Part shown: positions 6,753 through 48,247 of the stretch, one piece after another | How the letters are laid out: every line of letters starts with the position of its first letter | How positions within the stretch are numbered: the first letter of the stretch is position 1 | Origin: Thermodesulfobacteriota bacterium | GTDB lineage: Bacteria > Desulfobacterota_D > UBA1144 > Nemesobacterales > Nemesobacteraceae | Assembly: GCA_965204035.1 (NCBI GenBank) | Contig: OZ241964.1 | Span: 1,438,726 to 1,502,725 of the forward strand | Reading direction: 5' to 3' | DNA: 64,000 nt | Made by a program: the position numbers and the translations under genes | The notes under the pieces: generated by a model | Seen by the model: only the letters and a program-made list of their open reading frames with translations | Told to the model about the DNA's origin: nothing | Database searches by the model: none

Positions 6753-6804
6753 CCTGCGACCAGCCGACAGGCCCGGGCAGGCAATCCCGGTCAAAAGCAA
6801 CGAA

Positions 6805-8028
6805 TCAAAGTTGCGCGAATGGCAGAGCCACCGTGCCAAGGCCAAGAGGAAGTCTCATGTCGCCGGGGTGTACTACGTACCCGGACATCGCCACATCTCC
6901 CGTGTCTTTGCGAAACGCGTTTATGGACCTTGCCATGTGCCGACGCGGCGTCGCCGACAGTTTTACCTCCACCGGCACAAGTTTTCCTTCCGTTTCGATT
7001 ACGAAATCCACCTCGTTTCCGGCCATGGTTCTCCAGAAAAAGACTCTCGGGATTTCTCCGCGGTGAACCAGAGTCTTCACGATTTCAGAGAGCACGGCGG
7101 TCTCCATGATGGCACCTCCCATGGGACCTGCGGCTGCGTGCTGCGGGTCTTTCAGACCTGCAAGGTAACACAAAGTGCCCGTATCGGTGAAATAGACCTT
7201 CGGGGTTTTGACAAGCCGTTTTCCGACGTTGGAGAAATACGGCTGAAGCACAACCACCTGATAAGTGGCTTCCAGCACCGAGAGCCAAGCCTTGACGGTG
7301 TTAACCGAAATTCCAAGATCACGGGCCACATCGGCAAGATTCAGCAACTGTCCGCTTCTTGCCGCCAGGACCTGAAGGAATTTCCTGTAAAGGGCAAGGT
7401 CTCCTATATGACGCAGAGAACGGACGTCACGTTCAAGATAAGTCTGTATATAGCCGCCGTGCCAGAGAAACTCGTCTATTTCAGGTTGAGCGGCAGGTTC
7501 CGGGTATCCTCCCCTCAGGAACTCTTTCCATAACCTGTCAAAAGCCCGTGAGTTGTCAGGAGACGGCACGGCCCCCGATTCCCAAGGCAGGGAAAGCCCC
7601 GGCGCCGCATCCAGTTCCCGCCTGGAAAGCGGCAGCAGACAAAGCACGGCAATACGCCCGGCCAGAGACTCGGTCACTTTTTCCGTAAGCGCGAGGTTTT
7701 GAGAGCCCGTTAACAGGAACTGGCCTTTTTTACCTCGATCGGCGTCGATTTTTTCCTTTATGTAGAAAAACAGTTCCGGGGCATATTGAGCTTCATCAAG
7801 TATCACAGGGGGCGGATAGGTCTCAAGGAATGTGCGGGGATCCTGCAGCGCCAGCGCGCGGATGTCAGGCAACTCAAGAGAGACGTAACGGTAACTATCG
7901 CCGAACAATCGCAGCAGCAGGGTCGTTTTGCCGGACTGGCGCGGTCCGCTTACCAGTACGGCCGGAAACTGCGAAACAGCTTTTATGAGTACGGTCTCAA
8001 GCGATCTTTTTATATACGGAAGTTCCAT
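6805..8028 (-). CDS. AAA-type ATPase of the AAA_14/DUF4143 kind
   Basis: Walker A SGPRQSGKTTLL, Walker B ILDEAQ, TGSQ sensor block. Paralogue of 53601..54731. Confidence 0.8.
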   Translation of the reverse strand: MELPYIKRSLETVLIKAVSQFPAVLVSGPRQSGKTTLLLRLFGDSYRYVSLELPDIRALALQDPRTFLETYPPPVILDEAQYAPELFFYIKEKIDADRGKKGQFLLTGSQNLALTEKVTESLAGRIAVLCLLPLSRRELDAAPGLSLPWESGAVPSPDNSRAFDRLWKEFLRGGYPEPAAQPEIDEFLWHGGYIQTYLERDVRSLRHIGDLALYRKFLQVLAARSGQLLNLADVARDLGISVNTVKAWLSVLEATYQVVVLQPYFSNVGKRLVKTPKVYFTDTGTLCYLAGLKDPQHAAAGPMGGAIMETAVLSEIVKTLVHRGEIPRVFFWRTMAGNEVDFVIETEGKLVPVEVKLSATPRRHMARSINAFRKDTGDVAMSGYVVHPGDMRLPLGLGTVALPFAQL

Positions 8029-9789: not shown

Positions 9790-11283
9790 CTAACCAGAAT
9801 TCCCCTCTCTGGAAATGGTGTACTTTTCGAGAGGGTCTTCAACCGGTTTGAACTTTATCTTTACGCCCCTCTCCCGCTGGATTCTTCTCATGGACTTTCC
9901 TTCTATTTCTCTGAGCTTCGCTATGATTTTTCTGTTGGCCTGTACGACAAGAGGTCCTTCAGCGCTCTGCCTTGTCCATTGATCAATATCCCTCAGTATT
10001 TCGTAACAGGTGGTGTATATCGACTTTATCCGCCCGCTCCCCTCGCAGGTATCGCAGGGTTCGGTCAAGTCGGAAAGTATGCTTTCCCTGACCCTGCGTC
10101 TGGTAAGCTGGATTACGCTGAAAGACGATATCTCCTGGATCGTGCTCCTCGCCTTATCCTTTTTCATCTCATCTGTGAAAAGTGACTCTATCTTCTTTCT
10201 GGATCTGACGGGCTGCATGTCTATGAAATCGATAACTATGATTCCGACCAGATTACGAAGCCTTATCTGCCTTGCGGCTTCAACCGCGGCTTCTTCGTTC
10301 GTTTTCATTATTGTTTTTTTCTGAAATTCCTCTCCGACGAGTTTCCCGGAGTTAACGTCAATCACCGTGAGCCCCTCGGCCTCGTCTATGATCAAGTAAC
10401 CTCCTGACTTCATCCAGACCTTTTTTCTGTACATTTTTTCGATCTGGCTCTCGACTCCGTATCTGTCGAATATGGGTTCTTCTTTGTCGTACATATCGAC
10501 TTTAAACCCATCCTTCTTAATCTTGTCGGAAAAGTACCTGGTAATCCGGCCGTGAGCCTTAGGGGAGTCAACGACAATCTTCTTAAGTCCGTTTCCCATC
10601 AGGTCCCTTACAACCCTGATACAGCTATCGGCTTCCTGATGTATCATGCCCGGGTCTTCCGATTCTTCATATTTCTTCTTTATTCTTCTCCACTTTCTCA
10701 CAAGCGCCTTCATTTCGGTCTTGATATCCTTCTCATCCGCCCCCACGCATGCAGTTCTCACTATAAAACCCATGTCCTCGGGTTTATTCTGCATGATTTC
10801 GGAAAATCTTTTCCTGCTTTTTCTGTCCGTTATTTTGCGGGACACGTTAACCGAGTCTGCCCCGGGAAGCAGAACAAGATACTTGCCCGGTATCCCGACA
10901 TGGGATGTTAGCTTGGGGCCCTTGTTCCCGGTCGGTTCCTTTGTAACCTGAACCATTACTTCCTGGCCCTGGCGCAGCACCTTCTGTATCGGCTGGCGAT
11001 TCTTTCTGGATGTCTTTTTCGTCTCTTCCTCTTCAAGGAAAAGTTCGCTAAGCGATTCCTCATACACATCCTCGGCGGAGAGAAACCCGGACCTGCCGTC
11101 TCCCATGCCGACAAACGCCGCCTGAACTCCGGGGACTATCTTTTCGACTTTCCCCTTGTAGATGTTGCCCACCATTGAAGAACTGGATTTTCTCTCAATG
11201 AAAAGCTCGATCAGCCTGCTCTTCTCCAAGACCGCTATCCTCGTCTCGTTAAAAAGCGAGTTGATAATGAGTTGAGTGTTCAT
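9790..11283 (-). CDS. rng: Ribonuclease E/G family protein (RNase G-like)
   Basis: N-terminal S1 domain (GNIYKGKVEKIVPGVQAAFV), DNase-I-like and Zn-link (CxxC) regions. About 497 aa with no long C-terminal scaffold. Confidence 0.9.
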   Translation of the reverse strand: MNTQLIINSLFNETRIAVLEKSRLIELFIERKSSSSMVGNIYKGKVEKIVPGVQAAFVGMGDGRSGFLSAEDVYEESLSELFLEEEETKKTSRKNRQPIQKVLRQGQEVMVQVTKEPTGNKGPKLTSHVGIPGKYLVLLPGADSVNVSRKITDRKSRKRFSEIMQNKPEDMGFIVRTACVGADEKDIKTEMKALVRKWRRIKKKYEESEDPGMIHQEADSCIRVVRDLMGNGLKKIVVDSPKAHGRITRYFSDKIKKDGFKVDMYDKEEPIFDRYGVESQIEKMYRKKVWMKSGGYLIIDEAEGLTVIDVNSGKLVGEEFQKKTIMKTNEEAAVEAARQIRLRNLVGIIVIDFIDMQPVRSRKKIESLFTDEMKKDKARSTIQEISSFSVIQLTRRRVRESILSDLTEPCDTCEGSGRIKSIYTTCYEILRDIDQWTRQSAEGPLVVQANRKIIAKLREIEGKSMRRIQRERGVKIKFKPVEDPLEKYTISREGNSG

Positions 11284-15812: not shown

Positions 15813-16574
15813 ATGGTTTCAAAAAGAATAATTCCATGTCTTGACGTAAAGGACGGGAGAGTGGTAAAAGGGGTTCGCTTCGTTAACCTAAGGGATGCCG
15901 GGGACCCCGTTGAGGTGGCGAAAAAGTACAGCGAAGAGGGCGCTGACGAGATAACGTTTCTCGATATCACCGCCTCGCATGAAAAGAGAAAAACTATGAT
16001 AGACGTGGTCGAGCGGACCGCGAGCGAGGTCTTCGTTCCCCTGACCGTCGGAGGGGGGCTTAGAACCGTGGAAGACGTAAGAGAGCTTCTGCTGGCCGGG
16101 GCGGACAAGGTTACGATCAACACGGCGGCCATAACAGATCCGGACTTCGTAAGACGGGCTTCTGACAGGTTCGGAAGCCAGTGCATAGTGGTAGCGATAG
16201 ACGCGAGGAGAAAAGACGGCGGCGGATGGGAGGTATTCACCCACGGCGGACGCAACCCGACCGGAATAGACGCCGTCGGGTGGGCCGCGAAGATGGAGGA
16301 TTTCGGAGCGGGCGAAATCCTTCTTACGAGCATGGACAGGGACGGCACGGAGGACGGGTACGATCTCGAGCTCACAAGAACCATCTCGGAGACCGTCGGC
16401 ATTCCCGTCATAGCTTCTGGAGGCGCGGGACGGCTTGAACATCTGGTTGAAGCGGTGGAAGCGGGACGGGCAGACGCCGTTTTGTGCGCCTCGATTTTTC
16501 ATTACGGCAAGTATTCAATAAACGAGGCGAAGGAATTCCTGTCGGAGAAAGGGGTACTTGTAAGACTGGTGTAA
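15813..16574 (+). CDS. hisF: Imidazole glycerol phosphate synthase cyclase subunit HisF
   Basis: [29 protein letters not shown] blocks. Immediately follows hisA. Confidence 0.95.
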
Positions 16575-18538: not shown

Positions 18539-19353
18539 AACTGGGCCACAGTCCCGACGCTGACGACGCGTTCATGTTCTACGCCATAGCGAGCGGAAAG
18601 GTGGCTTCCGAAAAGATAGATTTCGAGCATGTGATTGAAGACATACAGTCACTCAACAAGAGAGCCATGAAAGGAGAGCTCGAAGTAACGGCAATCTCCG
18701 CCCATGGATACCTAAGCGTGCAGGACCGCTACCGGATTCTCTCCTGCGGAGCCAGCATGGGAAAAGGGTACGGCCCCATAGTGGTTGCCAAGAAGAAAAT
18801 TTCTGACCTCAGGGGAAAAGCCGTCGCGGTACCCGGGAAGCTTACTACCGCATATCTTCTTCTGAGTCTCTACGCTGATGATTTCATCCCGGTTGAAGTG
18901 CCCTTTGACAAGATCATGGACAAGGTGCTCGGAGAAGAGGTAGACGCGGGTCTTCTTATACATGAAGGACAGCTTACCTATGAAGAGACGGGGCTTGATC
19001 TTCTGTTCGATCTTGGAGCAATGTGGGCCGAGGAGACCGATCTTCCGATGCCGCTTGGACTTAACGTGCTTCGAAGAGACATACCCCGGGGGCTTGATGC
19101 CGAAGTTCTTCGAGTACATAAAGAAAGCATAGAGTACGCCCTCTCGAACAAAAAAGAGGCTCTTGATTACGCGATGCGCTTTGGAAGGGGGATGAGCGAG
19201 GATACGGGAGAGAAGTTCGTGTTGATGTACGTAAACGAGTGGACCAGGGACCTTGGCGAAAGTGGAACCGGGGCGCTTGAGTATCTTTTTGAAAAAGCCC
19301 GCGCAAAGGGAATCATAGCCGAGAACCCAATGCTTGATATTCTCTGCGACTGA
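18520..19353 (+). CDS. mqnD: MqnD-like (1,4-dihydroxy-6-naphthoate synthase family)
   Basis: KLGHSPDADDAFMFYAI resembles the MqnD SPCPNDTF block. GGAGAGGAG RBS just upstream. Confidence 0.65.
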   Translation: MEKRIMKLGHSPDADDAFMFYAIASGKVASEKIDFEHVIEDIQSLNKRAMKGELEVTAISAHGYLSVQDRYRILSCGASMGKGYGPIVVAKKKISDLRGKAVAVPGKLTTAYLLLSLYADDFIPVEVPFDKIMDKVLGEEVDAGLLIHEGQLTYEETGLDLLFDLGAMWAEETDLPMPLGLNVLRRDIPRGLDAEVLRVHKESIEYALSNKKEALDYAMRFGRGMSEDTGEKFVLMYVNEWTRDLGESGTGALEYLFEKARAKGIIAENPMLDILCD

Positions 19354-19359
19354 TTTTTC
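19337..19359. repeat. Left copy of a perfect 23-bp direct repeat ATATTCTCTGCGACTGATTTTTC
   Basis: Covers the last codons, stop and 6 nt after mqnD. An identical string occurs at 21518..21540. Confidence 0.95.
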
Positions 19360-19519
19360 TTAGTTTATGGAAAACCTCAAACTGTCTAGCGTTTGTCAAA
19401 AACCTCCTACTCACTAAAACAACAATAAGTGGTTCATCTGGAAATATAGTACCTCAGAATAGGGTCGAGTTTGGAACTAAGAGGCAAAGTGATAACCAAG
19501 TTAAAGATGAAAAAGGAAG

Positions 19520-20137
19520 TTACCCGAACAGCTTCGAAAGCCAAGCCATAAATGATGAATTTAATTGTGTTTGAGTAGTCAGGTCCCCCGCACCGATGGT
19601 GGCTCCCATTCTATTAGGTTTCTTTCTGGTAGCCAACCAAGCATAGAATTTTGCCTTATTTGATTTGGTTGGCAAAAACTTTTTATCATCCTCCGGAATG
19701 CTATCGATATAAGATTGGGCTAACGGCCACACCGGGTCATCATCTTTAATCATCTCTATTACGAAATCTTCGAGTTCCCCGCTTGCACTGTTATTGGGCA
19801 TCAGCCAAACACCTACGGTAGGTCCGCTGTCACTGTTAATAATTATGCCACTCTGATCCAGGTTCTCCGGAGGTTCAAAATCTGCGTCAATAAGTTTTTC
19901 CCTGATATCTTTCCAACGTTGCTTCGGACAACTGTTGCTGTCCATAACAAAGCCGACAGATTTACGTCCAGCAACCTTTGTTTGCACACTGATCTGTTTT
20001 AAGATATTGGGGTATCCTTCACAATCTTTTATGTCAAACTCAAGATTCTGCAGACACCGGTCTCGGATTTGCTTGATAACGTGTTTATCATCCTGTCCTT
20101 CAACTACAAGAAGATATTCATTGCCAACCGAAGCCAT
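19520..20137 (-). CDS. Small Toprim-like protein (DUF3226/DUF4276/DUF4435-like by recollection), partner of the upstream ATPase
   Basis: N-terminal LLVVEGQDDKHVI (EGxxD, Toprim/OLD-like acidic motif) and later GELEDF acidic block. Starts 2 nt after the ATPase stop. Confidence 0.55.
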   Translation of the reverse strand: MASVGNEYLLVVEGQDDKHVIKQIRDRCLQNLEFDIKDCEGYPNILKQISVQTKVAGRKSVGFVMDSNSCPKQRWKDIREKLIDADFEPPENLDQSGIIINSDSGPTVGVWLMPNNSASGELEDFVIEMIKDDDPVWPLAQSYIDSIPEDDKKFLPTKSNKAKFYAWLATRKKPNRMGATIGAGDLTTQTQLNSSFMAWLSKLFG

Positions 20138-20139
20138 TT

Positions 20140-21267
20140 CTATCTTACCTCTATATTGTATTCGGTGGCGGATTCAAGCTCGTTTTCTGAATACCTAATG
20201 CATCTCGTCCGCCCCTCTTCTCGTTCAAGACGGATAAGGACGCCTGAAACATCTTCGGCCTCGGTTGCGGCCCGCGCAAAACCTCTCACACAGTCGAAAC
20301 TGTGGGTCGTCGCGAAAACCTGAATATTATTTTCTTGCGCCGTTCGAAGTATCATACTCCAGAACTTGTGTTGAGCAGTGTAGTGAATTCCATTTTCCGC
20401 TTCATCAATCAGAAGGAACCCGTTGCGACAGTTACCCATAGCAAGGGCAGTACTGAATAACCGGGTAGCTCCATCACCAAGACTTTTCAGTGAGACAGGG
20501 CCATGTTTTCCAAGCCTGACGACAGCTCGCCTGCCCCTCCAACGAGCTCGAACCCCTTCCTCTCCAATCATAGCTACGCGATCCACCGGATCATCAAGAA
20601 CGAGGTTCAGAGCATTAATCGCAAGATCCTCATCTTCAGTAAGTGTGACTTCATCCCAGAGTTCGGCAATCGCTCTGTTAGATAAAATTTGAGGGCCCAG
20701 CCACTGTGATTTCATCGTTGCTGGTTTCTCATCCCTGTCAATAACATGCTGGATTCTTCGTTTCATTCTCCAGTTATTTTCAAACGAACCGAGAATCAGC
20801 CATTTCTTACCCCGGAAAGTTGTCCTGAATACAGGAACATCTCTTCCCGGAAAATCGTCGGCTACTAGTTCACGAAAGCGGGAAAGGCTTTTATCATCGG
20901 GAGCGGTCAGTTTAATTTTCAGCTTTCCGGTTTTGCCCTCTGGGCCAATTTCTATCTGCGCGCCCGTGGATGGTTCTCGTCCATGGAAAAGTGCCTTGAA
21001 ATCTAGCAAATCTACTTTCTCGCCATCTTTATCAATGCCAGCAAGAAACTCTTCACGCCCTATGATTAACTCGGCCAGTACGGACTCATCTGCACGAGCC
21101 GCATAAACTTTTACCGCTTCAAGAATAGTAGTCTTTCCACAACCGTTTCTCCCCGTAAACAAGGTTACATGACCCAATTTTGGAATTGAGAGTTTGTCGA
21201 AACACCGAAACCCCTTTATTGATAAATCAGGGAGATGGAACCCTCTGTCATCTAGTTGTTTGGACAT
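20140..21267 (-). CDS. ABC/SMC-like ATPase (AAA_21-like)
   Basis: Walker A GRNGCGKTT, signature-like LKSLGDGATR, Walker B FLLIDEAENGIH, H-loop ATTHS. Start placed at MSKQLDD (ATG 21267, AAAGGA RBS). The 54-codon upstream extension in the ORF track looks non-coding. Confidence 0.75.
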   Translation of the reverse strand: MSKQLDDRGFHLPDLSIKGFRCFDKLSIPKLGHVTLFTGRNGCGKTTILEAVKVYAARADESVLAELIIGREEFLAGIDKDGEKVDLLDFKALFHGREPSTGAQIEIGPEGKTGKLKIKLTAPDDKSLSRFRELVADDFPGRDVPVFRTTFRGKKWLILGSFENNWRMKRRIQHVIDRDEKPATMKSQWLGPQILSNRAIAELWDEVTLTEDEDLAINALNLVLDDPVDRVAMIGEEGVRARWRGRRAVVRLGKHGPVSLKSLGDGATRLFSTALAMGNCRNGFLLIDEAENGIHYTAQHKFWSMILRTAQENNIQVFATTHSFDCVRGFARAATEAEDVSGVLIRLEREEGRTRCIRYSENELESATEYNIEVR

Positions 21268-25056: not shown

Positions 25057-25291
25057 GGTAATCCTCCTTAAAACAGTTTTTTGCCGTAATTCGGGGCCTA
25101 TATTATAACGCTATTTCCAAATCTTTGTAAACCGTCCGCATCACTGAGGCGTGCGCGCTGTTGAGCACGCGCATATGTATCAAGTCCCCGAGTGCGAAAA
25201 AAAATTCTGCCCCGGGATTTCCTGTTTCTGTTCAGAGCTTGACCGGATGCGGGAATTCTGAGAGGCGCCCGAAAGACCTCGGGCAACCAAT

Positions 25292-25320
25292 TTGAATTTA
25301 TTCCCGCTTGCCGTTATACT
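25292..25320 (+). promoter_or_regulatory. Sigma70-type promoter: -35 TTGAAT, 17-bp spacer, -10 TATACT
   Basis: Conserved base-for-base in all three copies. Lies 24 nt upstream of the leader ATG (25345). GCCCGA-N6-TCGGGC hairpin immediately upstream. Confidence 0.7.
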
Positions 25321-25393
25321 GACGGTCGGAGGGTATACAGAAAGATGAGCAAAACAGAAAGAAATCCGTTACTGATGACTGAGAAAGGGGCTA

Positions 25394-25409
25394 CCCCCCC
25401 CCCCATTTT
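25394..25409 (+). repeat. Homopolymer tract C11-A-T4 inside the leader coding region (copy A)
   Basis: Counted directly. The leader ORF 25345..25428 terminates 19 nt after the tract because the downstream signal-peptide frame is offset by 1 nt. Confidence 0.95.
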
Positions 25410-25561
25410 GTCTCCCGCTAAGTTCTGATTCCCCCGGTTTTTCCCGCAAGTCCGCCCGGACGCTTTCCCTTCTCCTGTTCCTGCTGCTCGGCGCGTTCAG
25501 TCTGCCCGACGCGGCTTTTGCCCAGATTCTAAGGGTTGTTTATGCGGTAAAGGACCTAAGC

Positions 25562-27763
25562 GTGTCCGCGGTCGGCAACACGCTGCGAGTGTCGTGGGCT
25601 AACGACACTGATAACGGCTTTGACGCTCCTACTCATCACCTTGTGCACTACACCACCTCGGCCACCTTGAGAAGCGATTTAAGCAATGTAGGCTCAAACG
25701 TAGCCACCCAGTGGGTGGACGCGGGCCACAGCGGCACGACGACCTCGCACACGATCTCCGGTCTGAGCTACGGCACGACCTATCGGGTGCGCGTACAGAA
25801 CCAATATGTAGGGAGTGATAGTCAAAATTCCAACAGCCTTTGGACAACCAGTAGCGCTACGACCGGGGCTGCCCCCACGACCCCCACGACTCCTGCGCAG
25901 ACCGCCGAGCTTGGGGCTATCACGCCTGGCGCCGAGGGCGGAGTTCCGTCCATCTCGGTTTCCTACCGCCCCGTCACCTCCTCCTATATACAGATCGTAA
26001 AGAGCGATCAGCCCGCGTTCGGACCCGGGGACACCTGGCCGGAGCGCTACCGAGAGTGCCCCGGAAGAACCCTGCCCGGCGGCGTCGCCGCGGTGAGAAC
26101 GGAGGACACGTTTACCCCCGGAGTCAAGCGAGTCATTTTCAAGGGGTTTGATAAGGATACCACTTACCTGGTGCGGACTTGCAAAGGTTCAGTCATCTCT
26201 CCCCAGCTTTCCGTCACCACCTGGACCGTTCCCGGACCGCCGAAGGACGAGAAGGTGGTTGGCAGCAACAAGGACGGGATCTGCGTCAGATGGGCTCCTC
26301 CCGACAACAATGGCGGCGAGGGGGCGAGCATAACCGGCTACGATCTCCAGTTCAGGGAGTCTGGTGCGTGGAATAGCGAAGAGGCAAGCCACCCAAGAGA
26401 CGGATGGGTGACGGTTCCCGTCTTCGGAACCAGCACCAGCAAGGATATTCTCCGCCGCAGGGTGGATAACGGCAATGTGCTCTACACGGTGCCCGAAGGT
26501 CTGTACGATGTCCGGGTGCGGGCGAAAAACGGTATTGATCCCGGGAGCAAGTGGGTTACCAAAGAACTGGTGCAGGTGTCCGACCAGGGAACGGGTACCT
26601 GCGCCGCGGGAACATCCGTTCCCGCGCAGACTCCCCCCGCGCAGACTCCCCCCGCACAGACTCCAACGACGGGAGGCGGCGGCACCCCGGGCGGCGGCGG
26701 CACCCCGGGCGGCGGGGGTGGTACTCCTTCCGGCGGCGGTGAACCGCAACTGTCTTCAGACGCTTCCCTGAGCGGACTCCGCGTCTCTGAAGGAGACCTG
26801 ATGTTCAGCCCCGGGACGCGGGACTACGAAGTGACGGTGGGTCTTGAGGTGAGCGAACTCTCACTCACCCCAGAGGCCGGTCACCCCGACGCGGAAATAG
26901 AGATAAACGGCGTCTCCGCGCAAAGCGGAGAGGAAACGCGGATTGATCTCGGGGAGGACGAAACCGTCTCGATAACGATAACGGTCACCGCTCCCGACGG
27001 AGAGACCGCGATAACCTACACGGTAAGAGTTGCACGGGGGGAGGAGTGCGGGATAAACGACAAGGAAGCCCTCACAAGGTTCTACCGGGCCACGGGGGGA
27101 GACGAGTGGACAATGAAAGACAACTGGAACACCGAAAATCCTCTTGGGGAGTGGTACGGAGTAAGTACCGATGAAAACGAAAAAGCAATATCCCTTCTTC
27201 TGGCTGACAACAACCTTGAGGGAAAGATTCCCAGGGAGTTTCTGTGCCTCGCGGAACTCAAGGAACTCGCCCTCTGGGGCAACGAGGGGCTTTCGGGGCA
27301 TGTACCCGAAAACCATACGCTGGCGACAGAGAGGGCCGCGCTTCTTTACATTGCGCGCGCGCTTTCGCTCAACGCCGAGTGGTTCGATACTTACGAAGCC
27401 CCCTATTACGACTTCCCGGAGTGGCATGACGGGGTTACGACGGATGACGGAAGGGTAACGGAACTTTCCTTCTCGGGGGAAGACATAAGCGGAGTGATTC
27501 CCGTAATTCTCTTAACACAGCTAGAAGAGCTTGAGACTCTTGACCTTGAGTGCTCGGGCATCACCCTTGGCGGAGACGCGCCCGCGGGGGTTGAGGTAAA
27601 GGAGGGCTGCGATGAGGAAGAGGAGGAACGGCCGGACGGCGGGGGAGGCTGCGCTCTCGGAGACCAGGGGAGCGGGGGAGCGCCAGGCATCCTGCTTCTG
27701 CTGCTTGTGGCTGCCGTGTACTGGAGAGGGGCTTTTCTGAAAGTCCTCGGACGACCAGTTTGA
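25562..27763 (+). CDS. Family member 1: FN3 repeats, Pro/Thr/Gly linker, cadherin-like beta-sandwich, LRR, GGC tail; disconnected from its start codon and signal peptide (apparent phase-OFF)
   Basis: The frame is open from 25379 and encodes FCLPLSSDSPGFSRKSARTLSLLLFLLLGAFSLPDAAFAQ (signal peptide) with no ATG/GTG/TTG before 25562. FN3-like blocks (LRVSWA..YRVRVQN; VRWAPPDNNGG..YDVRVRAKN). LSGLRVSEGDL..YEVTV cadherin-like. LADNNLEGKIP LRR. Tail GGGGCALGDQGSGGAPGILLLLLVAAVYWRG. Confidence 0.75.
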   Translation: MSAVGNTLRVSWANDTDNGFDAPTHHLVHYTTSATLRSDLSNVGSNVATQWVDAGHSGTTTSHTISGLSYGTTYRVRVQNQYVGSDSQNSNSLWTTSSATTGAAPTTPTTPAQTAELGAITPGAEGGVPSISVSYRPVTSSYIQIVKSDQPAFGPGDTWPERYRECPGRTLPGGVAAVRTEDTFTPGVKRVIFKGFDKDTTYLVRTCKGSVISPQLSVTTWTVPGPPKDEKVVGSNKDGICVRWAPPDNNGGEGASITGYDLQFRESGAWNSEEASHPRDGWVTVPVFGTSTSKDILRRRVDNGNVLYTVPEGLYDVRVRAKNGIDPGSKWVTKELVQVSDQGTGTCAAGTSVPAQTPPAQTPPAQTPTTGGGGTPGGGGTPGGGGGTPSGGGEPQLSSDASLSGLRVSEGDLMFSPGTRDYEVTVGLEVSELSLTPEAGHPDAEIEINGVSAQSGEETRIDLGEDETVSITITVTAPDGETAITYTVRVARGEECGINDKEALTRFYRATGGDEWTMKDNWNTENPLGEWYGVSTDENEKAISLLLADNNLEGKIPREFLCLAELKELALWGNEGLSGHVPENHTLATERAALLYIARALSLNAEWFDTYEAPYYDFPEWHDGVTTDDGRVTELSFSGEDISGVIPVILLTQLEELETLDLECSGITLGGDAPAGVEVKEGCDEEEEERPDGGGGCALGDQGSGGAPGILLLLLVAAVYWRGAFLKVLGRPV
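26621..26665 (+). repeat. 15-bp in-frame tandem repeat x3 (CCCGCGCAGACTCCC), followed by a Gly-rich imperfect repeat
   Basis: Encodes PAQTPPAQTPPAQTP; followed by GGGGTPGGGGTPGGGGGTP. Confidence 0.9.
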
Positions 27764-27788
27764 ATTTATTCCCGCTTGCCGTTATACT
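27760..27788 (+). promoter_or_regulatory. Sigma70-type promoter copy B: TTGAAT-17-TATACT
   Basis: Same sequence as copies A and C. The member-1 stop codon TGA (27761-27763) sits inside the -35 hexamer. Confidence 0.7.
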
Positions 27789-27874
27789 GACACTCCAGTG
27801 TCAGGTAAGGAGGTAGTACAGAAAGATGAGTAAAGCAGAAAGAAATCCGTTACTGATGACTGAGAAAGGGGCTA

Positions 27875-27890
27875 CCCCCCCCCCCATTTT
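27875..27890 (+). repeat. Homopolymer tract C11-A-T4 (copy B)
   Basis: Counted directly. Leader ORF 27826..27909 stops shortly after the tract. The main frame is offset by 1 nt. Confidence 0.95.
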
Positions 27891-28060
27891 GTCTCCCGCT
27901 AAGTTCTGATTCCCCCGGTTTTTCCCGCAAGAGCACTAAAGCAATTTCCCTTCTTCCCGGACTGACCGGCGGCCATGGCGCCGCTCCGGCGGTCTCGCGC
28001 CGGGCCGCGTCCGCGTGGCGCCGCCCCGCCCTCCTCCCCGTCCTCGCGCTGCTGCTCGGC

Positions 28061-30538
28061 GTGTTCGGCCTGTTCGAGGCCGCGCCCGCCGCGGCGCAGA
28101 CCCCCGTCTGGTCGTCGGTGCTGACGGTTAATGCGGAAGGCGCAGGCCTAGGCTGCGGCGTTGTAGCCGGCTGTGGGTCTCGGTTAACGGACAATAGCTT
28201 TACGGTGGGCGGCACGGACTTTGTTATTGCTTTATTGCAGGACTACAACAGTGGCACTTATAGCGGTCAACTGAGGTTCCAGTTAGATGAGAATCCGAAT
28301 GATGCTCTGAAGGCCATGAAACTTTGTGTCGGGTCGACCTCATTTTCGCTGTCGAGCCCTTTTGGCAATCTGTACGCTTTCACCAACGCCAACCTGCCCT
28401 GGTCGGCCGGCGCCAAGGTGCCCCTGAGCATCATGGGCAGCGGCGCGTCCTGCCCGACGCCCCCGGTCTCGCTGGGCCGCGCCGGCAGCATGTCCGTCGA
28501 CGGGTTCCACCCAATGGGACCCGGACGCATGAAGATCGCCGAGGGCACATCGATCACCTACGGCATCGTGATCCACCAGCCGCCCACCGCGGATCTGACC
28601 ATCACGCCGCGACACCACAACGTCCGACCGGACGGCAGCGACTACCCCAACGTCGACACCAGTCTGCTCACGATCCACAACGCGGTCACCTGGAAAGCCG
28701 CCCCGCACCCCAACTACCTGAGCGGGGACTGGCAGCAGGCCAAATCGGTCGGGCTCACCGCCGTGGACGACAACGAGTGCAAGTCTCCGCCCGGCACCCG
28801 GTACTGGATCAGGCACCACGGCAGCGGCGGCGGTCCCGACTGGGGCGGGTGGGACCGGCAGGACCGGCACCATGGCCTGGTGATCTCGATCGAAATCATC
28901 GACGACGACTGCAAATATCTGGCCGCTTCCCCGGGCCAGGTGTATCCGGAGGAGGGCGCCAGCGCGACCTACACCGTGCGCCTGAAGACGCCGCTCGAGG
29001 ACGCCGCGTACATTTCCCCGCGCATCAGCGTCCCCGGCGACAGCGACCCCGGCGCGATCACGGTCTCTCCCGAGCGGATCCGGGTCGAAGCGGGAGACAC
29101 GAGCCCGAAGACGTTCACGGTCAGCGCCGGAAGGGACGCGAACTCCCGTAACGAGGTCCTGATCGTCGACCACAGCGTCGACTCGCCGGGGATCCCGGCG
29201 GATTACCTGGGCGCCCAGGTGACCGTCATTGTCCAGGACGAACAGAACGCGGCGAGGACGCAGGAGCGCGACGCGCTGAGCGTGACCGGGCTCGCGCTCA
29301 CGGCCGGTTCGGAGGCGGTGGCGCTGAGCCCGGCCTTCTCGACGGATGTGCTGTCCTACCGGGCGCAGGTCCCGGCGGGGACGGCGGGCGTGACGCTGGC
29401 GCCGCACTGGAGCGGCGGGGCGAGCGTGTTCGCGGGCTCGCGCCGGGGCGATACGACCTTCACGCGCCCGGCGCGGGTGCGGCCCTCGGGGACGGCGGTC
29501 GCGCTGGCGCTGGCGCCGGACGGCGGCGCGACCGAGCTGTGGGTGATGGCGAGCGACGGTTCGAGCGGCATGACGACCTACCGCATCGAGGTGACCGAGG
29601 CGCAGACGCAGGCGCAGGCTCTGACGACGGGCGGAGGAGGCACCCCGGGCGGCGGTGGCGGTTCTCCTTCCGGTGACGGAGGAGGCGGTGGAGCCCCTCC
29701 CACTGGCGGAGACAGTCCTTCGCCCGAAGAACCCCAAGAGCCTGAACAGACTGATGAGTGCGGAGATAACGACAGGGAAAACCTTGTGAGACTCTACGAC
29801 GCTACGGGCGGAGACAACTGGGATGAGGAAAAGAAGACAAACTGGAACTCCCCCGAACCTCTCGATCAGTGGTATGGAGTGGATACAGATGAAGACGGAG
29901 AGGTTGTATCCCTTCGTCTTGCGGATAACAATCTCTCCGGACAGATGCCGACAAAAGAACTTCTGTGTCTTAATGAAGACACGGAACTCAAGGAACTTGC
30001 CCTCTGGGATAACGACGGTCTCTCGGGAGAAGAGCCGGATGAACTTGTGCTTGCCGTCGAGAGAGCCGTGCTGAGAGACATAGCGGAAACGATTGACCTT
30101 AACCCCGAGTGGTTTGATGATTACGAGGAGCCCTTTGACTTCGAGAGCTGGCACTCAGGAGTTACGACGGATGAGGATGGAAGGGTGACGGGGCTTGATT
30201 TCACCGGGGAAGACATAGAGGGAGTGATTCCGGGGAGTGTTTTTGAGCTTGAAAACCTCACAGTCATAAGGAAGGGATGCGAAGTCACCCTTGAAGTCGA
30301 AGAGCCAGAGGGAGTGAATGTGATGATGGCTGAAGACTGCCCGGAGGAGACGGCACCTGAAGACATGGAAGAAATGGAGGAAGAGGAAACGGCAGCGTCC
30401 GGAGACGGGGGATGCGCCCTGGGTCAAGGGGATTCTTCTGTATCCGGCTTCGGCTTGTTCCTCGTGACTATTCTTGTCTTCGCGGCGCTTGTGAGAAAAA
30501 GGGTGCTGGTTTCCCGTCTGGCTGGGAACAGGCGGTAA
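28061..30538 (+). CDS. Family member 2: high-GC N-terminal adhesin-like region, Gly-rich linker, LRR, GGC tail; also disconnected from its leader ATG (apparent phase-OFF)
   Basis: The frame is open upstream through FCLPLSSDSPGFSRKS...RRPALLPVLALLLGVFGLFEAAPAAAQ. The only in-frame start is a GTG in the middle of the signal-peptide h-region. Cadherin-like block LSPAFSTDVLSYRAQV. LRR block LADNNLSGQMP. Tail DGGCALGQGDSSVSGFGLFLVTILVFAALVRKR. Confidence 0.75.
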   Translation: MFGLFEAAPAAAQTPVWSSVLTVNAEGAGLGCGVVAGCGSRLTDNSFTVGGTDFVIALLQDYNSGTYSGQLRFQLDENPNDALKAMKLCVGSTSFSLSSPFGNLYAFTNANLPWSAGAKVPLSIMGSGASCPTPPVSLGRAGSMSVDGFHPMGPGRMKIAEGTSITYGIVIHQPPTADLTITPRHHNVRPDGSDYPNVDTSLLTIHNAVTWKAAPHPNYLSGDWQQAKSVGLTAVDDNECKSPPGTRYWIRHHGSGGGPDWGGWDRQDRHHGLVISIEIIDDDCKYLAASPGQVYPEEGASATYTVRLKTPLEDAAYISPRISVPGDSDPGAITVSPERIRVEAGDTSPKTFTVSAGRDANSRNEVLIVDHSVDSPGIPADYLGAQVTVIVQDEQNAARTQERDALSVTGLALTAGSEAVALSPAFSTDVLSYRAQVPAGTAGVTLAPHWSGGASVFAGSRRGDTTFTRPARVRPSGTAVALALAPDGGATELWVMASDGSSGMTTYRIEVTEAQTQAQALTTGGGGTPGGGGGSPSGDGGGGGAPPTGGDSPSPEEPQEPEQTDECGDNDRENLVRLYDATGGDNWDEEKKTNWNSPEPLDQWYGVDTDEDGEVVSLRLADNNLSGQMPTKELLCLNEDTELKELALWDNDGLSGEEPDELVLAVERAVLRDIAETIDLNPEWFDDYEEPFDFESWHSGVTTDEDGRVTGLDFTGEDIEGVIPGSVFELENLTVIRKGCEVTLEVEEPEGVNVMMAEDCPEETAPEDMEEMEEEETAASGDGGCALGQGDSSVSGFGLFLVTILVFAALVRKRVLVSRLAGNRR

Positions 30539-30585
30539 AAGCTTTTTGCGTTGCACGATGCGATACGGCGCATCTCCTTAATCCC

Positions 30586-30783
30586 GGAGAGGCGCCCGCG
30601 GGGGTTGAGGTAAAAGAGGGCTGCGATGAGGAAGAGGAGGAACGGCCGGACGGCGGAGGGGGAGGCTGCGCTCTCGGAGACCAGGGGAGCGGGGGAGCGC
30701 AAGACATCCTGCTTCTGCTGCTTGTGGCTGTCGCGTACGGGAGAGGGGCTTTTCTGAGGGGGCGGCGCGGAAGAAACCTCTGA
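30586..30783 (+). pseudogene. Orphan 3' fragment of a family member (tail only, no start)
   Basis: Encodes ...APAGVEVKEGCDEEEEERPDGGGGGCALGDQGSGGAQDILLLLLVAVAYGRGAFLRGRRGRNL*, near-identical to the last ~65 codons of members 1 and 3. Lies 48 nt after the member-2 stop. Confidence 0.8.
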
Positions 30784-31024
30784 GAAGAGAGAATTCATCC
30801 GACAGGTAATCCGGGGATGTCGGGAAGCGGATTCGTTGCGGCGAAGCGCCAGGATTTTAACTGGCCGGCAAGTTTGAGGCGTGCGCGCTGTTGAGCACGC
30901 GCATATGTATCAAGGGTTTCCCCGGGTGCGAAAAAACTTCTGCCCCGGGATTTTCTGTTTCTGTTCAGAGCTTGACCGGATGCGGGAATTCTGAGAGGCG
31001 CCCGAAAGTCCTCGGGCGACCAAT

Positions 31025-31053
31025 TTGAATTTATTCCCGCTTGCCGTTATACT
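31025..31053 (+). promoter_or_regulatory. Sigma70-type promoter copy C: TTGAAT-17-TATACT
   Basis: Identical hexamers and spacer. Lies 24 nt upstream of ATG 31078. Confidence 0.7.
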
Positions 31054-31077
31054 GACGGTCGGGAGTTAGACAGAAAG

Positions 31078-34000
31078 ATGAGTAAAGCAGACAAAGATCC
31101 GTTGCTGATGACTGAGAAAGGGGCTACCCCCCCCCCCATTTTTTGTCTCCCGCTAAGATCTGATCCCCCCGGTTTTTCCCGCAAGTCCGCCCGGACGCTT
31201 TCCCTTCTCCCGTTCCTGCTGCTCGGGTTTCTGTGCCTGATGAACGCCACACCCGCTGCGGCGCAGACATCCATCTGGTCTGCGACGCTGACGACGAGGC
31301 CGACAGATAACGGTAACCGGTTCACCGGCTGCCGGAATGCCAGAAGTGGAAACACCAAATGCAGCGATACCTCCACGTTGACGGACGATGATCTTACGGT
31401 CAGTGGCACGGATTATCAGATAATATCGATTTATGCGGAGAAGAGTCGTTCCAATTCCACTCTGGTGATGCAATGGGACCAGGACGTGAGAACCGCACTG
31501 GACAGCTACAAGCTCTGCGCCGGCACGAAGCAGTATGCGTTCGCGGACGCAACGCACGCTGCCAATGATTATACCCAGTGGCAGGCCTCAGCCCTCTGGT
31601 CTGACGGCGATATGATTTCCCTGAGCATCGGCACGTCCTGCCCGAGCTATGTCCCTCCCCCCACGGTATTGCTCTCGGCCACTCCGAACCCCGTGAAAGA
31701 GGGGCATCCGGTGACGCTGACGGCCACCCTGTCTGAGGCCCTTACGATCGATGTCAACATTCCGCTTAAGTTTATCAGGGGCACGACGGGCTCGTGGGAC
31801 TACGGTGCTACGCCGCACATCTCGATCCCAAGCGGGCAGACTACCGGCACGGTCACGATCCCGACGCGGCCGGACCATGACCACGACGACGAGATCTTCA
31901 CGGTGGAAATTTTCAAGCCAAACCTGACCGCGTTGCTGACTGCGGGCAGCATGACCTCCGTTATGGTGACGATCCGTGACACGCCGCCGTCGGAGCACCC
32001 GGCCGCCCCCACGGCGACGAGAAATGCCGGCCTGAGTCGTATCACTCTGCTGACAGACACCGCCAGTACCAATGCTGCTACGGGGAACATCCAGAAGCGC
32101 GTGGAAGACAGTCTCAGCCCGTCCTTCCATTCCGACATCCTCAACTACGCGGTGCGCGTGGACGCCGGGGTGAAGAGAATACAAGTGGGTGTCACACCCC
32201 AATACCCTAACTCTATAGCTTACCTCATCATCTACAGCCAGCCGGCAATCCGCTCCGCCCCCTACACCCGTTGGGTGGAACTGGACACGGACGTCAAGCG
32301 TATACGGATCTTGGTGGATACCCCGGGAGCTGCACAAAGGCGGATCTACGAGCTGACGGTGCTTCGGGGCGGTGTCGTGGATCCGTACGCGGAGGATCAG
32401 ACCACAGTCTGGTCATCGACCCTGACGGCGAAGGAACTCTCATCAAGCTTGAGAGGTTGCGATGACTCTGATCAACTGGCTGCAAACAAGTGCTTGGAGG
32501 CCCTTACGGAAAATGAGTTCTCGTATTCGGGTACGCGCTATGGTGTCAGGTTGCTCTCACTCGGCTTCGTTAGCGGCGATTCCAACTTCCTTTTCGGACT
32601 CAACAAGGCCATCCCCAGCGCCATGAAGAACCTCTTGACGCTACACGTCGGAAAAGAACGGGCGCTCCCGCTTAGTTCCAGCACCTTTTCTTCCCAGAGC
32701 GGCAATACCCTCCAATGGTTAAGGTATGTCGTGGGAGGATGGGGAGTGGGCGGTACCGTTCTGCTGAAGCTGACGGGACCGACCTCGCCGGTCATCCCCG
32801 CGGTCTCGCTCTTGGCCACTCCGAACCCCGTGAAAGAGGGACATTCGGTGACGCTGACGGCCACTCTGTCTGCGGCGCTTCCGGTGAATACCTTCATTCC
32901 GCTTAAGTTTATTAGGAGCACGGCGGACTCGTTGGACTACGGTGCTACGCCGCACATCTCGATCCCAAGCGGGCAGACTACCGGCACGGTCACGCTGAAG
33001 ACGAAAGTGAACGTGTACGACGACGACGACGAGACGTTCACGGTGGCGATTGACGAGGACAATCTGTCCTCGAGGTTGACTGCGGGAAGCCTGTCCTCCG
33101 TCACGGTGACGATTGAGGACTACCTGCCGCCCGTCCTGCGGGAGCTCTCCCTTTTCGCCGTGGACAACAGACCCTACGCGAGACGCCTGGGTTTTGTGGA
33201 AGATGATCTTGAACCGACTTTCCACGAAGACACCCTCAACTACACGGTGCGCGTAGACGACTGGGTGCGGTATATAAGGGTGGGTGCCGAAGCCCGATAC
33301 AGTAACCCTGAAGACCCGACGAAGGTACTCGTCAACGGCGAGCCGAAGAAACCTTTCTCCAGTTTTTGGGTGGAACTGAAGGATGTCACGCCGATCGAAA
33401 TCGTGGTGAGGACTCCGCTCGGGGAGTCGCGGACCTACGCGGTGAGAGTGCTTCGGGGCAATGCCGAGACTCCGCCCGATCAGACTCCGCCCGATCAGAC
33501 TCCCCCCGATCAGACTCCCCCCGATCAGACTCCAACGACGGGCGGAGGCGGCGGTCCTCCTTCCGGCGGCGGTGAACCGCAACTGTCTTCAGACGCTTCC
33601 CTGAGCGGACTCCACGTCTCTGAAGGAGACCTGATGTTCAGCCCCGGGACGCGGGACTACAAAGTGACGGTGGGTCTTGAGGTGAGCGAATTCTCACTCA
33701 CCCCAGAGGCCGGTCACCCCGACGCGGAAATAGAGATAAACGGCGTCTCCGCGCAAAGCGGAGAGGAAACGCGGATTGATCTCGGGGAGGACGAAGAAAC
33801 CGTCTCGATAACGATAACGGTCACCGCTCCCGACGGAGAGACCGCGATAACCTACACGGTAAGAGTTGCACGGGGGGAGGAGTGCGGGATAAACGACAAG
33901 GAAGCCCTCACAAGGTTCTACCGGGCCACGGGGGGAGACGAGTGGACAATGAAAGACAACTGGAACACCGAAAATCCTCTTGGGGAGTGGTACGGAGTAA

Positions 34001-34602
34001 GTACCGATGAAAACGAAAAAGCAATATCCCTTCTTCTGGCTGACAACAACCTTGAGGGAAAGATTCCCAGGGAGTTTCTGTGCCTCGCGGAACTCAAGGA
34101 ACTCGCCCTCTGGGGCAACGAGGGGCTTTCGGGGCATGTACCCGAAAACCATACGCTGGCGACAGAGAGGGCCGCGCTTCTTTACATTGCGCGCGCGCTT
34201 TCGCTCAACGCCGAGTGGTTCGATACTTACGAAGACCCCTATTACGACTTCCCGGAGTGGCATGACGGCGTTGCGACGGATGACGGAAGGGTGACGGGGC
34301 TTTCCTTCTCTGGGGAAGACATAAGCGGAGTGATTCCCGTAATTCTCTTAAGACAGCTTGAGCGCCTTGAGACCCTTGACCTTGAGTGCTCGGACATCAC
34401 CCTTGGCGGAGACGCGCCCGCGGGGGTTGAGGTAAAAGAGGGCTGCGATGAGGAAGAGGACCTGCCGGGCGACGGAGGGGGAGGCTGCGCTCTCGGAGAC
34501 CAGGGGAGCGGGGGAGCGCCAGGCATCCTGCTTCTGCTGCTTTTGGCTGTGGCGTACGGGAGAGGGGCTTTTCTGAAGGGGCGGCGCGGAAGAAACCTCT
34601 GA
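31078..34602 (+). CDS. Family member 3 (1174 aa, intact, apparent phase-ON): 2 x [novel N-module + Calx-beta-like + cadherin-like], linker, cadherin-like, LRR, GGC tail
   Basis: Leader MSKADKDPLLMTEKGATPPPIFCLPL... joins signal peptide LLPFLLLGFLCLMNATPAAAQ. Calx-beta-like blocks (ATPNPVKEGH.VTLTATLS...DDE.FTV). Cadherin-like blocks (LSPSFHSDILNYAVRV; LEPTFHEDTLNYTVRV; FSPGTRDYKVTV). LRR. Tail GGGGCALGDQGSGGAPGILLLLLLAVAYGRGAFLKGRRGRNL. Confidence 0.85.
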   Translation: MSKADKDPLLMTEKGATPPPIFCLPLRSDPPGFSRKSARTLSLLPFLLLGFLCLMNATPAAAQTSIWSATLTTRPTDNGNRFTGCRNARSGNTKCSDTSTLTDDDLTVSGTDYQIISIYAEKSRSNSTLVMQWDQDVRTALDSYKLCAGTKQYAFADATHAANDYTQWQASALWSDGDMISLSIGTSCPSYVPPPTVLLSATPNPVKEGHPVTLTATLSEALTIDVNIPLKFIRGTTGSWDYGATPHISIPSGQTTGTVTIPTRPDHDHDDEIFTVEIFKPNLTALLTAGSMTSVMVTIRDTPPSEHPAAPTATRNAGLSRITLLTDTASTNAATGNIQKRVEDSLSPSFHSDILNYAVRVDAGVKRIQVGVTPQYPNSIAYLIIYSQPAIRSAPYTRWVELDTDVKRIRILVDTPGAAQRRIYELTVLRGGVVDPYAEDQTTVWSSTLTAKELSSSLRGCDDSDQLAANKCLEALTENEFSYSGTRYGVRLLSLGFVSGDSNFLFGLNKAIPSAMKNLLTLHVGKERALPLSSSTFSSQSGNTLQWLRYVVGGWGVGGTVLLKLTGPTSPVIPAVSLLATPNPVKEGHSVTLTATLSAALPVNTFIPLKFIRSTADSLDYGATPHISIPSGQTTGTVTLKTKVNVYDDDDETFTVAIDEDNLSSRLTAGSLSSVTVTIEDYLPPVLRELSLFAVDNRPYARRLGFVEDDLEPTFHEDTLNYTVRVDDWVRYIRVGAEARYSNPEDPTKVLVNGEPKKPFSSFWVELKDVTPIEIVVRTPLGESRTYAVRVLRGNAETPPDQTPPDQTPPDQTPPDQTPTTGGGGGPPSGGGEPQLSSDASLSGLHVSEGDLMFSPGTRDYKVTVGLEVSEFSLTPEAGHPDAEIEINGVSAQSGEETRIDLGEDEETVSITITVTAPDGETAITYTVRVARGEECGINDKEALTRFYRATGGDEWTMKDNWNTENPLGEWYGVSTDENEKAISLLLADNNLEGKIPREFLCLAELKELALWGNEGLSGHVPENHTLATERAALLYIARALSLNAEWFDTYEDPYYDFPEWHDGVATDDGRVTGLSFSGEDISGVIPVILLRQLERLETLDLECSDITLGGDAPAGVEVKEGCDEEEDLPGDGGGGCALGDQGSGGAPGILLLLLLAVAYGRGAFLKGRRGRNL
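31127..31144 (+). repeat. Homopolymer tract C11-A-T6 (copy C, in frame)
   Basis: Two more T than copies A and B. Reads ACC CCC CCC CCC ATT TTT TGT = TPPPIFC and continues into the signal peptide. Confidence 0.95.
33466..33540 (+). repeat. 15-bp in-frame tandem repeat x5 (CAGACTCCSCCCGAT)
   Basis: Encodes (E/D)QTPP repeated: ETPPDQTPPDQTPPDQTPPDQTPTT. Confidence 0.9.
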
Positions 34603-34958
34603 GAAGAGATCCCGACCGTGATATCATCCGCGCTCCTGAGCGGATGCGGGGTAAAGCCGCGACGATACCCGGCGCGCGCGTGGAAACGTCATAGAACACA
34701 TAAACTCAAGGACAGTTCAGGTCCGAAAGGCGCTTTATCAGGGGCGAGGGAGGAGATGACCGCACGGGCGGGTGTAGCGTTGGCGGGGATGATGGCGCTT
34801 GTTTCGGGATGCCGGGCCAGGGTCGGATAGCGGTTCTCCGTTTGTTCAGGCAGAAAATTTAAAAGCAGGATTGTCCCAATAGCGGCTGACGTCGTGGCGG
34901 TGAAGTTCTGGCTGCGGAAATCCGAAGCCCGAAAATCGTTACGGCGGAAAAGGCCTCA

Positions 34959-48202: not shown

Positions 48203-48247
48203 AAAAAAAAAAAAAGGATGCGAACCCGCAAGACCGCATCCTTTTTT
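48203..48247. terminator. Bidirectional rho-independent terminator
   Basis: A13, GGATGCG, 12-nt loop, CGCATCC, T6. On the minus strand this gives a hairpin followed by T13, directly after the rhodanese gene. Confidence 0.8.

Follow-up and report, generated by a model that had tools for sequence, protein, structure and literature searches.

Is a gene whose coding body lies one nucleotide out of frame with its only usable start codon a gene in decay, or one that has been sequenced in its OFF state? The question is raised by the second of three tandem paralogues in a 64,000-nucleotide stretch of contig OZ241964.1 (positions 1,438,726 to 1,502,725; assembly GCA_965204035.1), which is called the window here and whose coordinates are used throughout. 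The three paralogues, members 1, 2 and 3, are referred to as m1, m2 and m3, with the prefix W_ for the window copies and S_ for the copies on a second contig, L007. Comparison of the available sequences suggests that m2 is probably a homopolymer contingency (phase-variable) gene of a sponge-associated Candidatus Dadabacteria, OFF in the consensus and switched by slippage at the DNA level. The features of m2 on which this reading rests are listed below.

27760..27788, + strand: sigma-70-like promoter TTGAAT-17-TATACT, recognized by sequence, with equivalents at 25292-25320 in m1 and 31025-31053 in m3, and kept in L007 and in the scaffold L028
27808..27813, + strand: Shine-Dalgarno sequence AGGAGG, read from the sequence, with the leader ATG 12 nucleotides further 3'
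27826..27909, + strand: leader open reading frame (ORF) as assembled, with ATG at 27826-27828, 27 codons and TGA at 27907-27909; N-terminus of the full protein when ON
27875..27890, + strand: tract C11-A-T4 (C11 at 27875-27885, A at 27886, T4 at 27887-27890), the proposed slippage switch
27887..30538, + strand: body reading frame, +1 relative to the leader, 883 codons and a stop at 30536-30538
28016..28096, + strand: signal-peptide-like segment WRRPALLPVLALLLGVFGLFEAAPAAA/Q, taken from the translation; many family members have homologous N-termini

The original prediction, which had been made from the letters of the sequence, placed the ATG at 27826, the end of the leader stop at 27909 and the tract at 27875-27890, and all these coordinates were found to be correct on re-reading. 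The leader frame encodes the 27-residue peptide MSKAERNPLLMTEKGATPPPILSPAKF, which in the OFF form ends ...TPPPILSPAKF, and the C11 run is located 49 nucleotides past the ATG in the 5' coding region and exceeds the ~8-9 nucleotides from which a homopolymer counts as hypermutable. The body frame is uninterrupted from 27860 to the stop at 30536-30538 and is shut further upstream by TGATGA at 27854-59; the chance of such a frame being open, calculated from base composition, is ~9e-12. Recomputation of the frames also reproduced the claim that the body is offset by 1 nucleotide and that its first canonical start (ATG, GTG or TTG) is a GTG at 28061, which encodes the V of ...LALLLGVFGLFEAAPAAAQ / ...PVLALLLGVFGLFEAAPAAAQ in the hydrophobic core of the signal peptide. 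Removal of one C (C10) fuses the leader and body into an ORF of 903 amino acids, with GATPPPFCLPLSSDSPGFSR as the predicted junction peptide of this ON form, and addition of two (C13) gives 904 amino acids. An antisense ORF of 604 amino acids (28340-30154) was set aside as a by-product of the high guanine-plus-cytosine (GC) content of the m2 body. At the upstream edge, the TGA stop of m1 (27761-27763) was observed to lie inside the -35 hexamer TTGAAT of m2 (27760-27765), and no terminator-like site was found on reading the sequence between m1 and m2.

The two neighbouring members carry the same leader.

25345..27763, + strand: m1, with ATG at 25345, C11 at 25394-25404, A, T4 at 25406-25409 and leader stop at 25426-25428
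31078..34602, + strand: m3, with C11 at 31127-31137, A and T6 at 31139-31144; in frame, 1174 amino acids

The tract and offset of m1 are the same as those of m2; its body is open to 27763 and a C10 form would encode 805 amino acids. As m3 is in frame with C11-A-T6 and both m1 and m2 are out of frame with C11-A-T4, the ON/OFF difference within the window sits in the T run and not in the C run. It had been claimed that two of the three paralogues are OFF by the same offset, and the common offset of m1 and m2 was confirmed; as a sign of independent switching, however, the shared offset carries no evidence because the leader cassette is shared by common descent or gene conversion.

Nine leader-tract genes were tallied, three in the window, four in L007 and two in L028. 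L007 is a 52-kb contig of a second strain from the same ENA sample (ERZ25068511), with the same synteny and with flanks that are 97-98% identical. Its m1 orthologue, an extra member and its m2 orthologue all have C11-A-T4 and are out of frame; in its m3 orthologue the tract is C15-A-T5 and the gene is in frame (1178 amino acids). L028 is a 168-kb scaffold from another sample (ERZ23495066) with two members at a different chromosomal site. Gene 2 of this scaffold has the same leader with C11-A-T4, and C10 would give 850 amino acids. Gene 1 (ATG 7137) has an unrelated leader, MKAFAHNRTLTQYEFSSPAPPP..., which also contains C11 and has the opposite offset; C12 or C9 would give a protein of 799 or 798 amino acids that includes a signal peptide and the family tail. 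This second leader type was found in frame in the protein P0220 (...EFSSIPPPHFFNSLVHNQRT...signal peptide...) and is therefore OFF in L028 and ON in P0220.

Over the nine genes the C run is C11 in eight and C15 in one. Two genes are in frame, six need a shift of -1 and one, with the different leader, needs +1, which makes seven of nine out of frame where ~2/3 would be expected if the frame were random with respect to a slipping tract. Deletion of one C restores a full-length ORF in each of the five out-of-frame copies found in the window and L007 (798-984 amino acids) as well as in L028 gene 2. Between the strains, the m3 orthologues have changed both runs (C11/T6 vs C15/T5) with the frame kept. 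The presence of offsets of -1, +1 and 0 in different members points to non-directional indel slippage and argues against a directional ribosomal frameshift. The promoter, Shine-Dalgarno sequence and ATG are intact in every cassette copy, the 12-nucleotide spacing of the latter two is identical in 7/7 copies of the window and L007, and ~100 nucleotides around the tract are near-invariant over seven copies with strongly diverged bodies. Eight leader columns 5' of the tract are variable, five of them at third codon positions and four of those synonymous. Runs of at least nine C gave 12 overlapping matches in the window against 1.2 expected. The C/G runs of at least eight number four in the window, every one exactly 11 long, and none was found in ~250 kb of related Dadabacteria DNA (18 related loci), so the tracts are specific to these genes. 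Exact-DNA scans for the leader and promoter (two patterns) gave no match in the genome contig collection, and those of the metagenome contig collection gave nothing beyond three chance matches. These are occurrences of the 20-mer CCCCCGGTTTTTCCCGCAAG in unrelated Joint Genome Institute metagenome contigs (L002 298-317, L003 2627-2646 and L004 1764-1783), and they were rejected as cassette copies; the context in L002 and L003 is a shared intergenic element, ...CAAGAACCGCAGC..AAGGACTTAGCGGTGG, and the overlap is judged to be by chance.

Once the frame is repaired, every copy is open from the ATG to the tail. Substitution patterns between the window and L007 copies, given as synonymous divergence (dS) and the ratio of nonsynonymous to synonymous divergence (dN/dS), were as follows.

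W_m1 vs S_m1: dS ~0.2, dN/dS 0.54-0.69, p = 8e-4 vs neutrality; five indels, all in frame
W_m2 vs S_m2: dS 0.11, dN/dS 0.55, p = 1.3e-3 vs neutrality; eight indels, all in frame
m3 orthologues (in frame): dS 0.03, dN/dS 0.71, p 0.08; two indels, all in frame

The m1 and m2 orthologue pairs are separated by dS of 0.11-0.22, 143-257 substitutions and 5-8 indels, and not one stop or frame-breaking indel was observed. Open bodies, indels that are exclusively in frame and dN/dS below 1 together argue that m1 and m2 are not decaying pseudogenes; judged by these substitutions, the out-of-frame bodies are intact and maintained by selection, with dN/dS comparable to that of the in-frame paralogue. The original prediction had considered decaying pseudogenes unlikely. 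It proposed a search for further lesions in the body ORFs of relatives, which revealed none, and a test for purifying selection on the body ORF, which for m2 gave the dN/dS of 0.55 listed above, and the claim stands.

The proposed mechanism of m2 would operate as follows. A portable 5' cassette consisting of the sigma-70-like promoter, the Shine-Dalgarno sequence, a 16-codon leader and C11-A-T4 would start translation at ATG 27826. With C11 the ribosome would halt after 27 codons and no exported protein would be made, because there is no usable start in the body frame upstream of the signal peptide. During replication, slipped-strand mispairing would then alter the C run to C10 or C13 and so create a leader-body fusion, the 903-residue precursor. 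The assembly would represent the majority (OFF) state of the population, and a minority of cells would be expected to be ON. As each paralogue has its own cassette, the members could switch independently to give a mixed adhesin-like repertoire, with bodies that recombination and import from co-resident bacteria would reshuffle.

The phase-OFF interpretation put forward in the original prediction is strengthened by m2 being intact, selected and one step from ON, and by the mutability of tracts in the family, which is seen in the m3 orthologues and in the OFF and ON forms of the second leader type. A high-GC homologue with C8 at a site where its counterpart has C9 adds a related polymorphism that toggles the frame. 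The switching itself is inferred for m2, and so are DNA-level slippage, its reversibility and high frequency, and surface exposure. Several observations weigh against this interpretation. All six out-of-frame copies of the m2-type leader have exactly C11-A-T4, in three strains and two samples and with flanks diverged by up to 13.5% (L028). The m2 tract is unchanged in every relative compared (S_m2 and L028 gene 2), where a random-walking tract would be expected to vary in modal length, and the sole length variant (C15) comes from a contig with 4.85x coverage. Leaders within one genome share strain-specific substitutions (GAG vs GAA at codon 13), which indicates gene conversion or concerted evolution, and the copies are therefore not independent observations. 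A C11 run in the mRNA could, moreover, slip during transcription or translation too. Leader copying by gene conversion explains part of the C11 uniformity but cannot explain the unrelated leader or a further C11 tract at 63841-63851. The uniform length may thus be read in two ways: C11 may be the modal length at mutational equilibrium, so that every consensus shows C11 and the T run sets the default state, or the length may be under selection since the C run has a function at the RNA level too.

The second of these leads to RNA-level recoding as an alternative to DNA slippage. Here C11-A-T4 would be a conserved site of RNA polymerase slippage (C10/C13 transcripts) or of ribosomal +1 shifting on CCC_C, and a constant low fraction of product would be full-length. 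We consider this unlikely, and yet several features are in keeping with it: the out-of-frame tract is kept in 6/6 copies, the ~100 nucleotides around it are near-invariant despite the diverged bodies, both non-productive frames terminate within ~10 codons, and CCC_C sites are prone to +1 slippage. It has also been noted that simple sequence repeats of virulence genes could cause non-standard decoding, a matter that has been little studied (Baranov et al., PMC1088944). However, two members are in frame without any shift and L028 gene 1 requires the opposite one, on which ground a directional +1 ribosomal frameshift was rejected as the common mechanism. The search for a stimulatory RNA structure at the leader found none, as the leader folds worse than shuffled controls (z = +1.74), and a structure-stimulated frameshift was rejected on this result. 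No stop or rare codon is present at the shift site, where the 0-frame continues with AUU and reaches its stop seven codons on, and the documented cases of bacterial transcriptional slippage are at A/T runs (PMC1088944). RNA recoding is in addition compatible with DNA slippage and does not exclude it. A fuller version, which we regard as doubtful, would have C11 length-locked by selection, in eight of the nine genes, under two unrelated leaders and in the unrelated tract at 63841-63851, as an RNA-level slippage site that fixes the fractional expression of each paralogue, with T4/T5/T6 as an evolvable dial for the default state. The whole would form a C-run recoding device, and the portable cassette that carries it would capture adhesin bodies imported from other phyla.

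Recent inactivation, with a fixed frameshift in m1 and m2, no switching and further lesions not yet accrued, would fit the identical frameshift of orthologues and paralogues as one ancestral lesion spread by duplication or conversion. It is nevertheless largely refuted by the divergence of the window and L007 copies without a stop or frame-breaking indel and by dN/dS significantly <1; the more distant L028 copies are equally free of lesions and each cassette copy has preserved its expression signals, so that we regard inactivation as highly unlikely. An error in assembled homopolymer length, by which the true tract would be C10 and the gene simply in frame, appears still less probable. The contig names suggest assemblies that we take to be built from long metagenomic reads, and long C/G runs are error-prone in sequencing; database G-tract lengths can also deviate from the population mode (PMC9187656). 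No uniform bias, however, could bring every copy into frame, since a nominal C11 is found both in in-frame genes (m3 and the unrelated gene at 63841-63851) and in the out-of-frame m1 and m2. The tract C11-A-T4 recurs in the independent contig L007 and in L028, which has scaffold-style names and comes from a different sample, and the presence of C15 and A13 runs speaks against a length ceiling; taken together these points make an assembly error unlikely. Just as improbable in our view is a 27-codon leader that serves as a separate regulatory upstream ORF, with the body translated from a non-canonical start or by re-initiation. The leader does have its own Shine-Dalgarno sequence, ATG and stop, and L028 gene 2 has an in-frame TTG 5' of the signal peptide that was chosen by the gene caller. 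In m1 and m2, by contrast, the body frames have no ATG, GTG or TTG upstream of the signal peptide and no Shine-Dalgarno-like sequence there, and in the in-frame members m3, S_m3 and P0220 the frame that opens at the leader ATG runs without a break into the signal peptide.

The proteins encoded after repair are predicted to begin with an N-terminal extension of 33-35 amino acids followed by a Sec-type signal peptide (AXA/Q). Their variable bodies contain cadherin-like (PF12733), fn3 and LapA modules, the latter two in paralogues, and are followed by a conserved LRR-like C-terminal module (a sub-threshold match to LRR_10) and by a tail that combines a GGCAL motif with a hydrophobic helix and a basic end. 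In m2 the body and tail features are located as follows.

~29318-29596, + strand: cadherin-like domain, Pfam PF12733
30401..30535, + strand: C-terminal tail with GDGGCAL motif, hydrophobic stretch and basic end; sorting/anchor-like

The m2 tail gave no match to the MYXO-CTERM and JDVT-CTERM sorting-domain models, and the m1 tail matched them below threshold, with E = 0.012 at 16 bits (cut-off 20) and E = 0.014 at 15 bits (cut-off 27). No NCBIfam family matched the full-length proteins. By these predictions the array proteins look like secreted or cell-surface proteins of the adhesin type.

Part of the m2 body appears to have a foreign origin.

27953..29605, + strand: segment of m2 shared with high-GC bacteria of the same sponge sample, recognized by nucleotide identity and local GC content

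This segment is 94.8% identical at the nucleotide level to L005 (73% GC; 6133-7776) and 96.5-97.3% identical to L008 (10725-11869 and 21198-22335) and L009 (10126-11263), which have 68-69% GC. Its local GC content is 0.68-0.77 as compared with the ~0.50 of the Dadabacteria background. The import junction was found inside the N-terminal extension (...SLLPG/LTGGHGAAPAVSRRAAS...), which is common to many of the high-GC homologues. On this evidence m2 consists of a local promoter-leader-tract cassette fused in frame to a body of recent import, with a C-terminal module that is again local, and the 95-97% identity indicates that distant bacteria have exchanged adhesin modules horizontally and very recently. 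A further trace of rearrangement follows m2.

30585..30790, + strand: orphan 3' end of a family gene (C-terminal tail coding region) past the m2 stop, belonging to repeat families D2 and D8 and identified by blastn; putative remnant of cassette replacement

Simple repeats were also observed in the high-GC homologues. At the same mid-gene site, a C8 run in L009 (9959-9966) splits the gene into 189 + 1135 amino acids and the C9 counterpart in L008 (21030-21038) reads through in frame, in a copy that is 5'-truncated by an insertion sequence. In L001, (AGCGCCG) x 6.6 at 9955-10000 lies directly 5' of the ATG of the high-GC homologue P0018, and the homologues P0063, P0045 and P0030 have 7-residue periodic N-terminal repeats that resemble heptanucleotide repeats read in frame. 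Other simple repeats are therefore found at the 5' ends of family genes in other bacteria. A small gene of L008 contains a perfect (GCCT) x 29.5 at 16235-16352, which is another candidate contingency repeat.

The closest parallel is provided by the pilus genes of Bifidobacterium breve UCC2003, in which a G10-12 tract splits the ORF with the secretion signal from the rest and switching by replication slippage has been shown experimentally; the population was a mixture of G11 (37%) and G12 (60%) and this mixture was shifted in vivo (PMC9187656). Like the sortase-dependent pilus loci bbr_0113a/b and bbr_1889a/b of this host-associated non-pathogen, m2 has a G/C homopolymer of 10-12 nucleotides between two frames, a start in the first ORF, a second ORF without its own start, a reference sequence that is OFF and tract equivalents that are conserved across strains. 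The two systems differ in that the first ORF of B. breve includes the secretion signal, whereas the m2 tract precedes the signal peptide and follows a 16-codon leader. The m2 locus, moreover, belongs to a tandem paralogue family of an uncultured sponge Dadabacterium in which each copy has the same promoter-leader-tract cassette, and its product is a mosaic of cadherin-like and LRR-like parts that ends in a hydrophobic tail, and not an LPXTG pilin. Switching has been measured in B. breve and is predicted for m2.

The classical relatives are found in Neisseria. The homopolymer of pilC1/pilC2 is placed inside the coding frame (work of Jonsson et al. 1991, cited in PMC5953494), and Opa genes, of which each genome has several paralogues, contain CTTCT repeats; G-tract ranges of G9-20 are listed in the same source (PMC5953494). 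These systems and the array have in common a frame-setting repeat in the 5' part of the coding sequence of a surface or adhesion gene, and the presence of several paralogues with a repeat each, which results in combinatorial expression, is a feature of Opa. Tract lengths in Neisseria vary widely between strains, in contrast to the C11 of 8/9 genes here; the proteins are unrelated and the setting is a mammalian pathogen or commensal and not a sponge symbiosis. Transcriptional slippage, for its part, is known at A/T runs of ~9 or more in insertion sequences and dnaX (Baranov et al. 2005, PMC1088944). These share with the array a homopolymer between two frames and an out-of-frame layout that is conserved among copies, but the run here consists of C, and the frame change needed differs between members (-1, +1 or none), where all copies of the known cases need the same one. 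The mechanism proposed for m2 is thus already known, and the Dadabacteria lineage, the sponge-symbiosis setting, the protein family and the portable cassette would be new instances.

Large families of eukaryotic-like surface proteins are a known trait of sponge symbionts, and their regulation and diversification in individual cells are little understood. A full-text literature search gave no relevant paper that links phase variation with sponge symbionts. If the locus switches, a streamlined and uncultured symbiont with a genome of ~2 Mb would run a stochastic and combinatorial adhesin repertoire in the manner of mucosal pathogens, with possible roles in evading host phagocytosis or phage or in occupying different sponge niches. 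The locus also documents a recent exchange of an adhesin module across a GC gap of ~20% within one sponge, with the module placed behind a local cassette. Genes of this kind are truncated or missed by gene callers, which biases the numbers of eukaryotic-like proteins counted in symbiont genomes. Read-level tests of phase variation in existing sponge metagenomes have a concrete target in this locus.

The array as a whole occupies a lineage-specific insertion.

25146..34953, + strand: island of 9.8 kb with the three-gene array, in the ccsB-dodecin spacer, with CATCACT(G/C)A direct repeats at its ends

In relatives (L010 and others) window position 25145 is joined straight to 34954. Anchoring on DapF, we found ccsB, dodecin and dapF to be adjacent in 18/18 related Dadabacteria loci, with an 85-bp spacer and no array, and the array is therefore considered an island. 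The CATCACT(G/C)A at both junctions resembles a target-site duplication or a recombination scar. The flanks consist of chromosomal housekeeping genes (dapF, aminofutalosine deaminase, prfA, ccsB, RNase Y and acs), and DapF is 85% identical to Candidatus Dadabacteria proteins and 95-97% identical to relatives that include proteins of metagenome-assembled genomes named Dadabacteria. Further paralogues, P0002 and P0066, are located elsewhere on the 2.0-Mb contig of the window.

The fourth C11 run of the window (63841-63851, - strand) encodes a poly-proline stretch (~21 P) in a long ORF that leaves the window and is in frame as assembled. This ORF, again with exactly C11, could be another switchable gene; its available 415 amino acids gave no Pfam match. 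An A13 run at 48203-48215 lies beside a GGATGCG...CGCATCC hairpin followed by a T run and resembles a bidirectional intrinsic terminator and not a switch. In L010, a gene beside an EVE-domain gene was called as two overlapping ORFs of 185 + 338 amino acids (19184-20702); the same gene is intact in L011 (19001-20719) and L012 (19015-20703), where it encodes ~565 amino acids with no Pfam match, and the difference may be a frameshift polymorphism.

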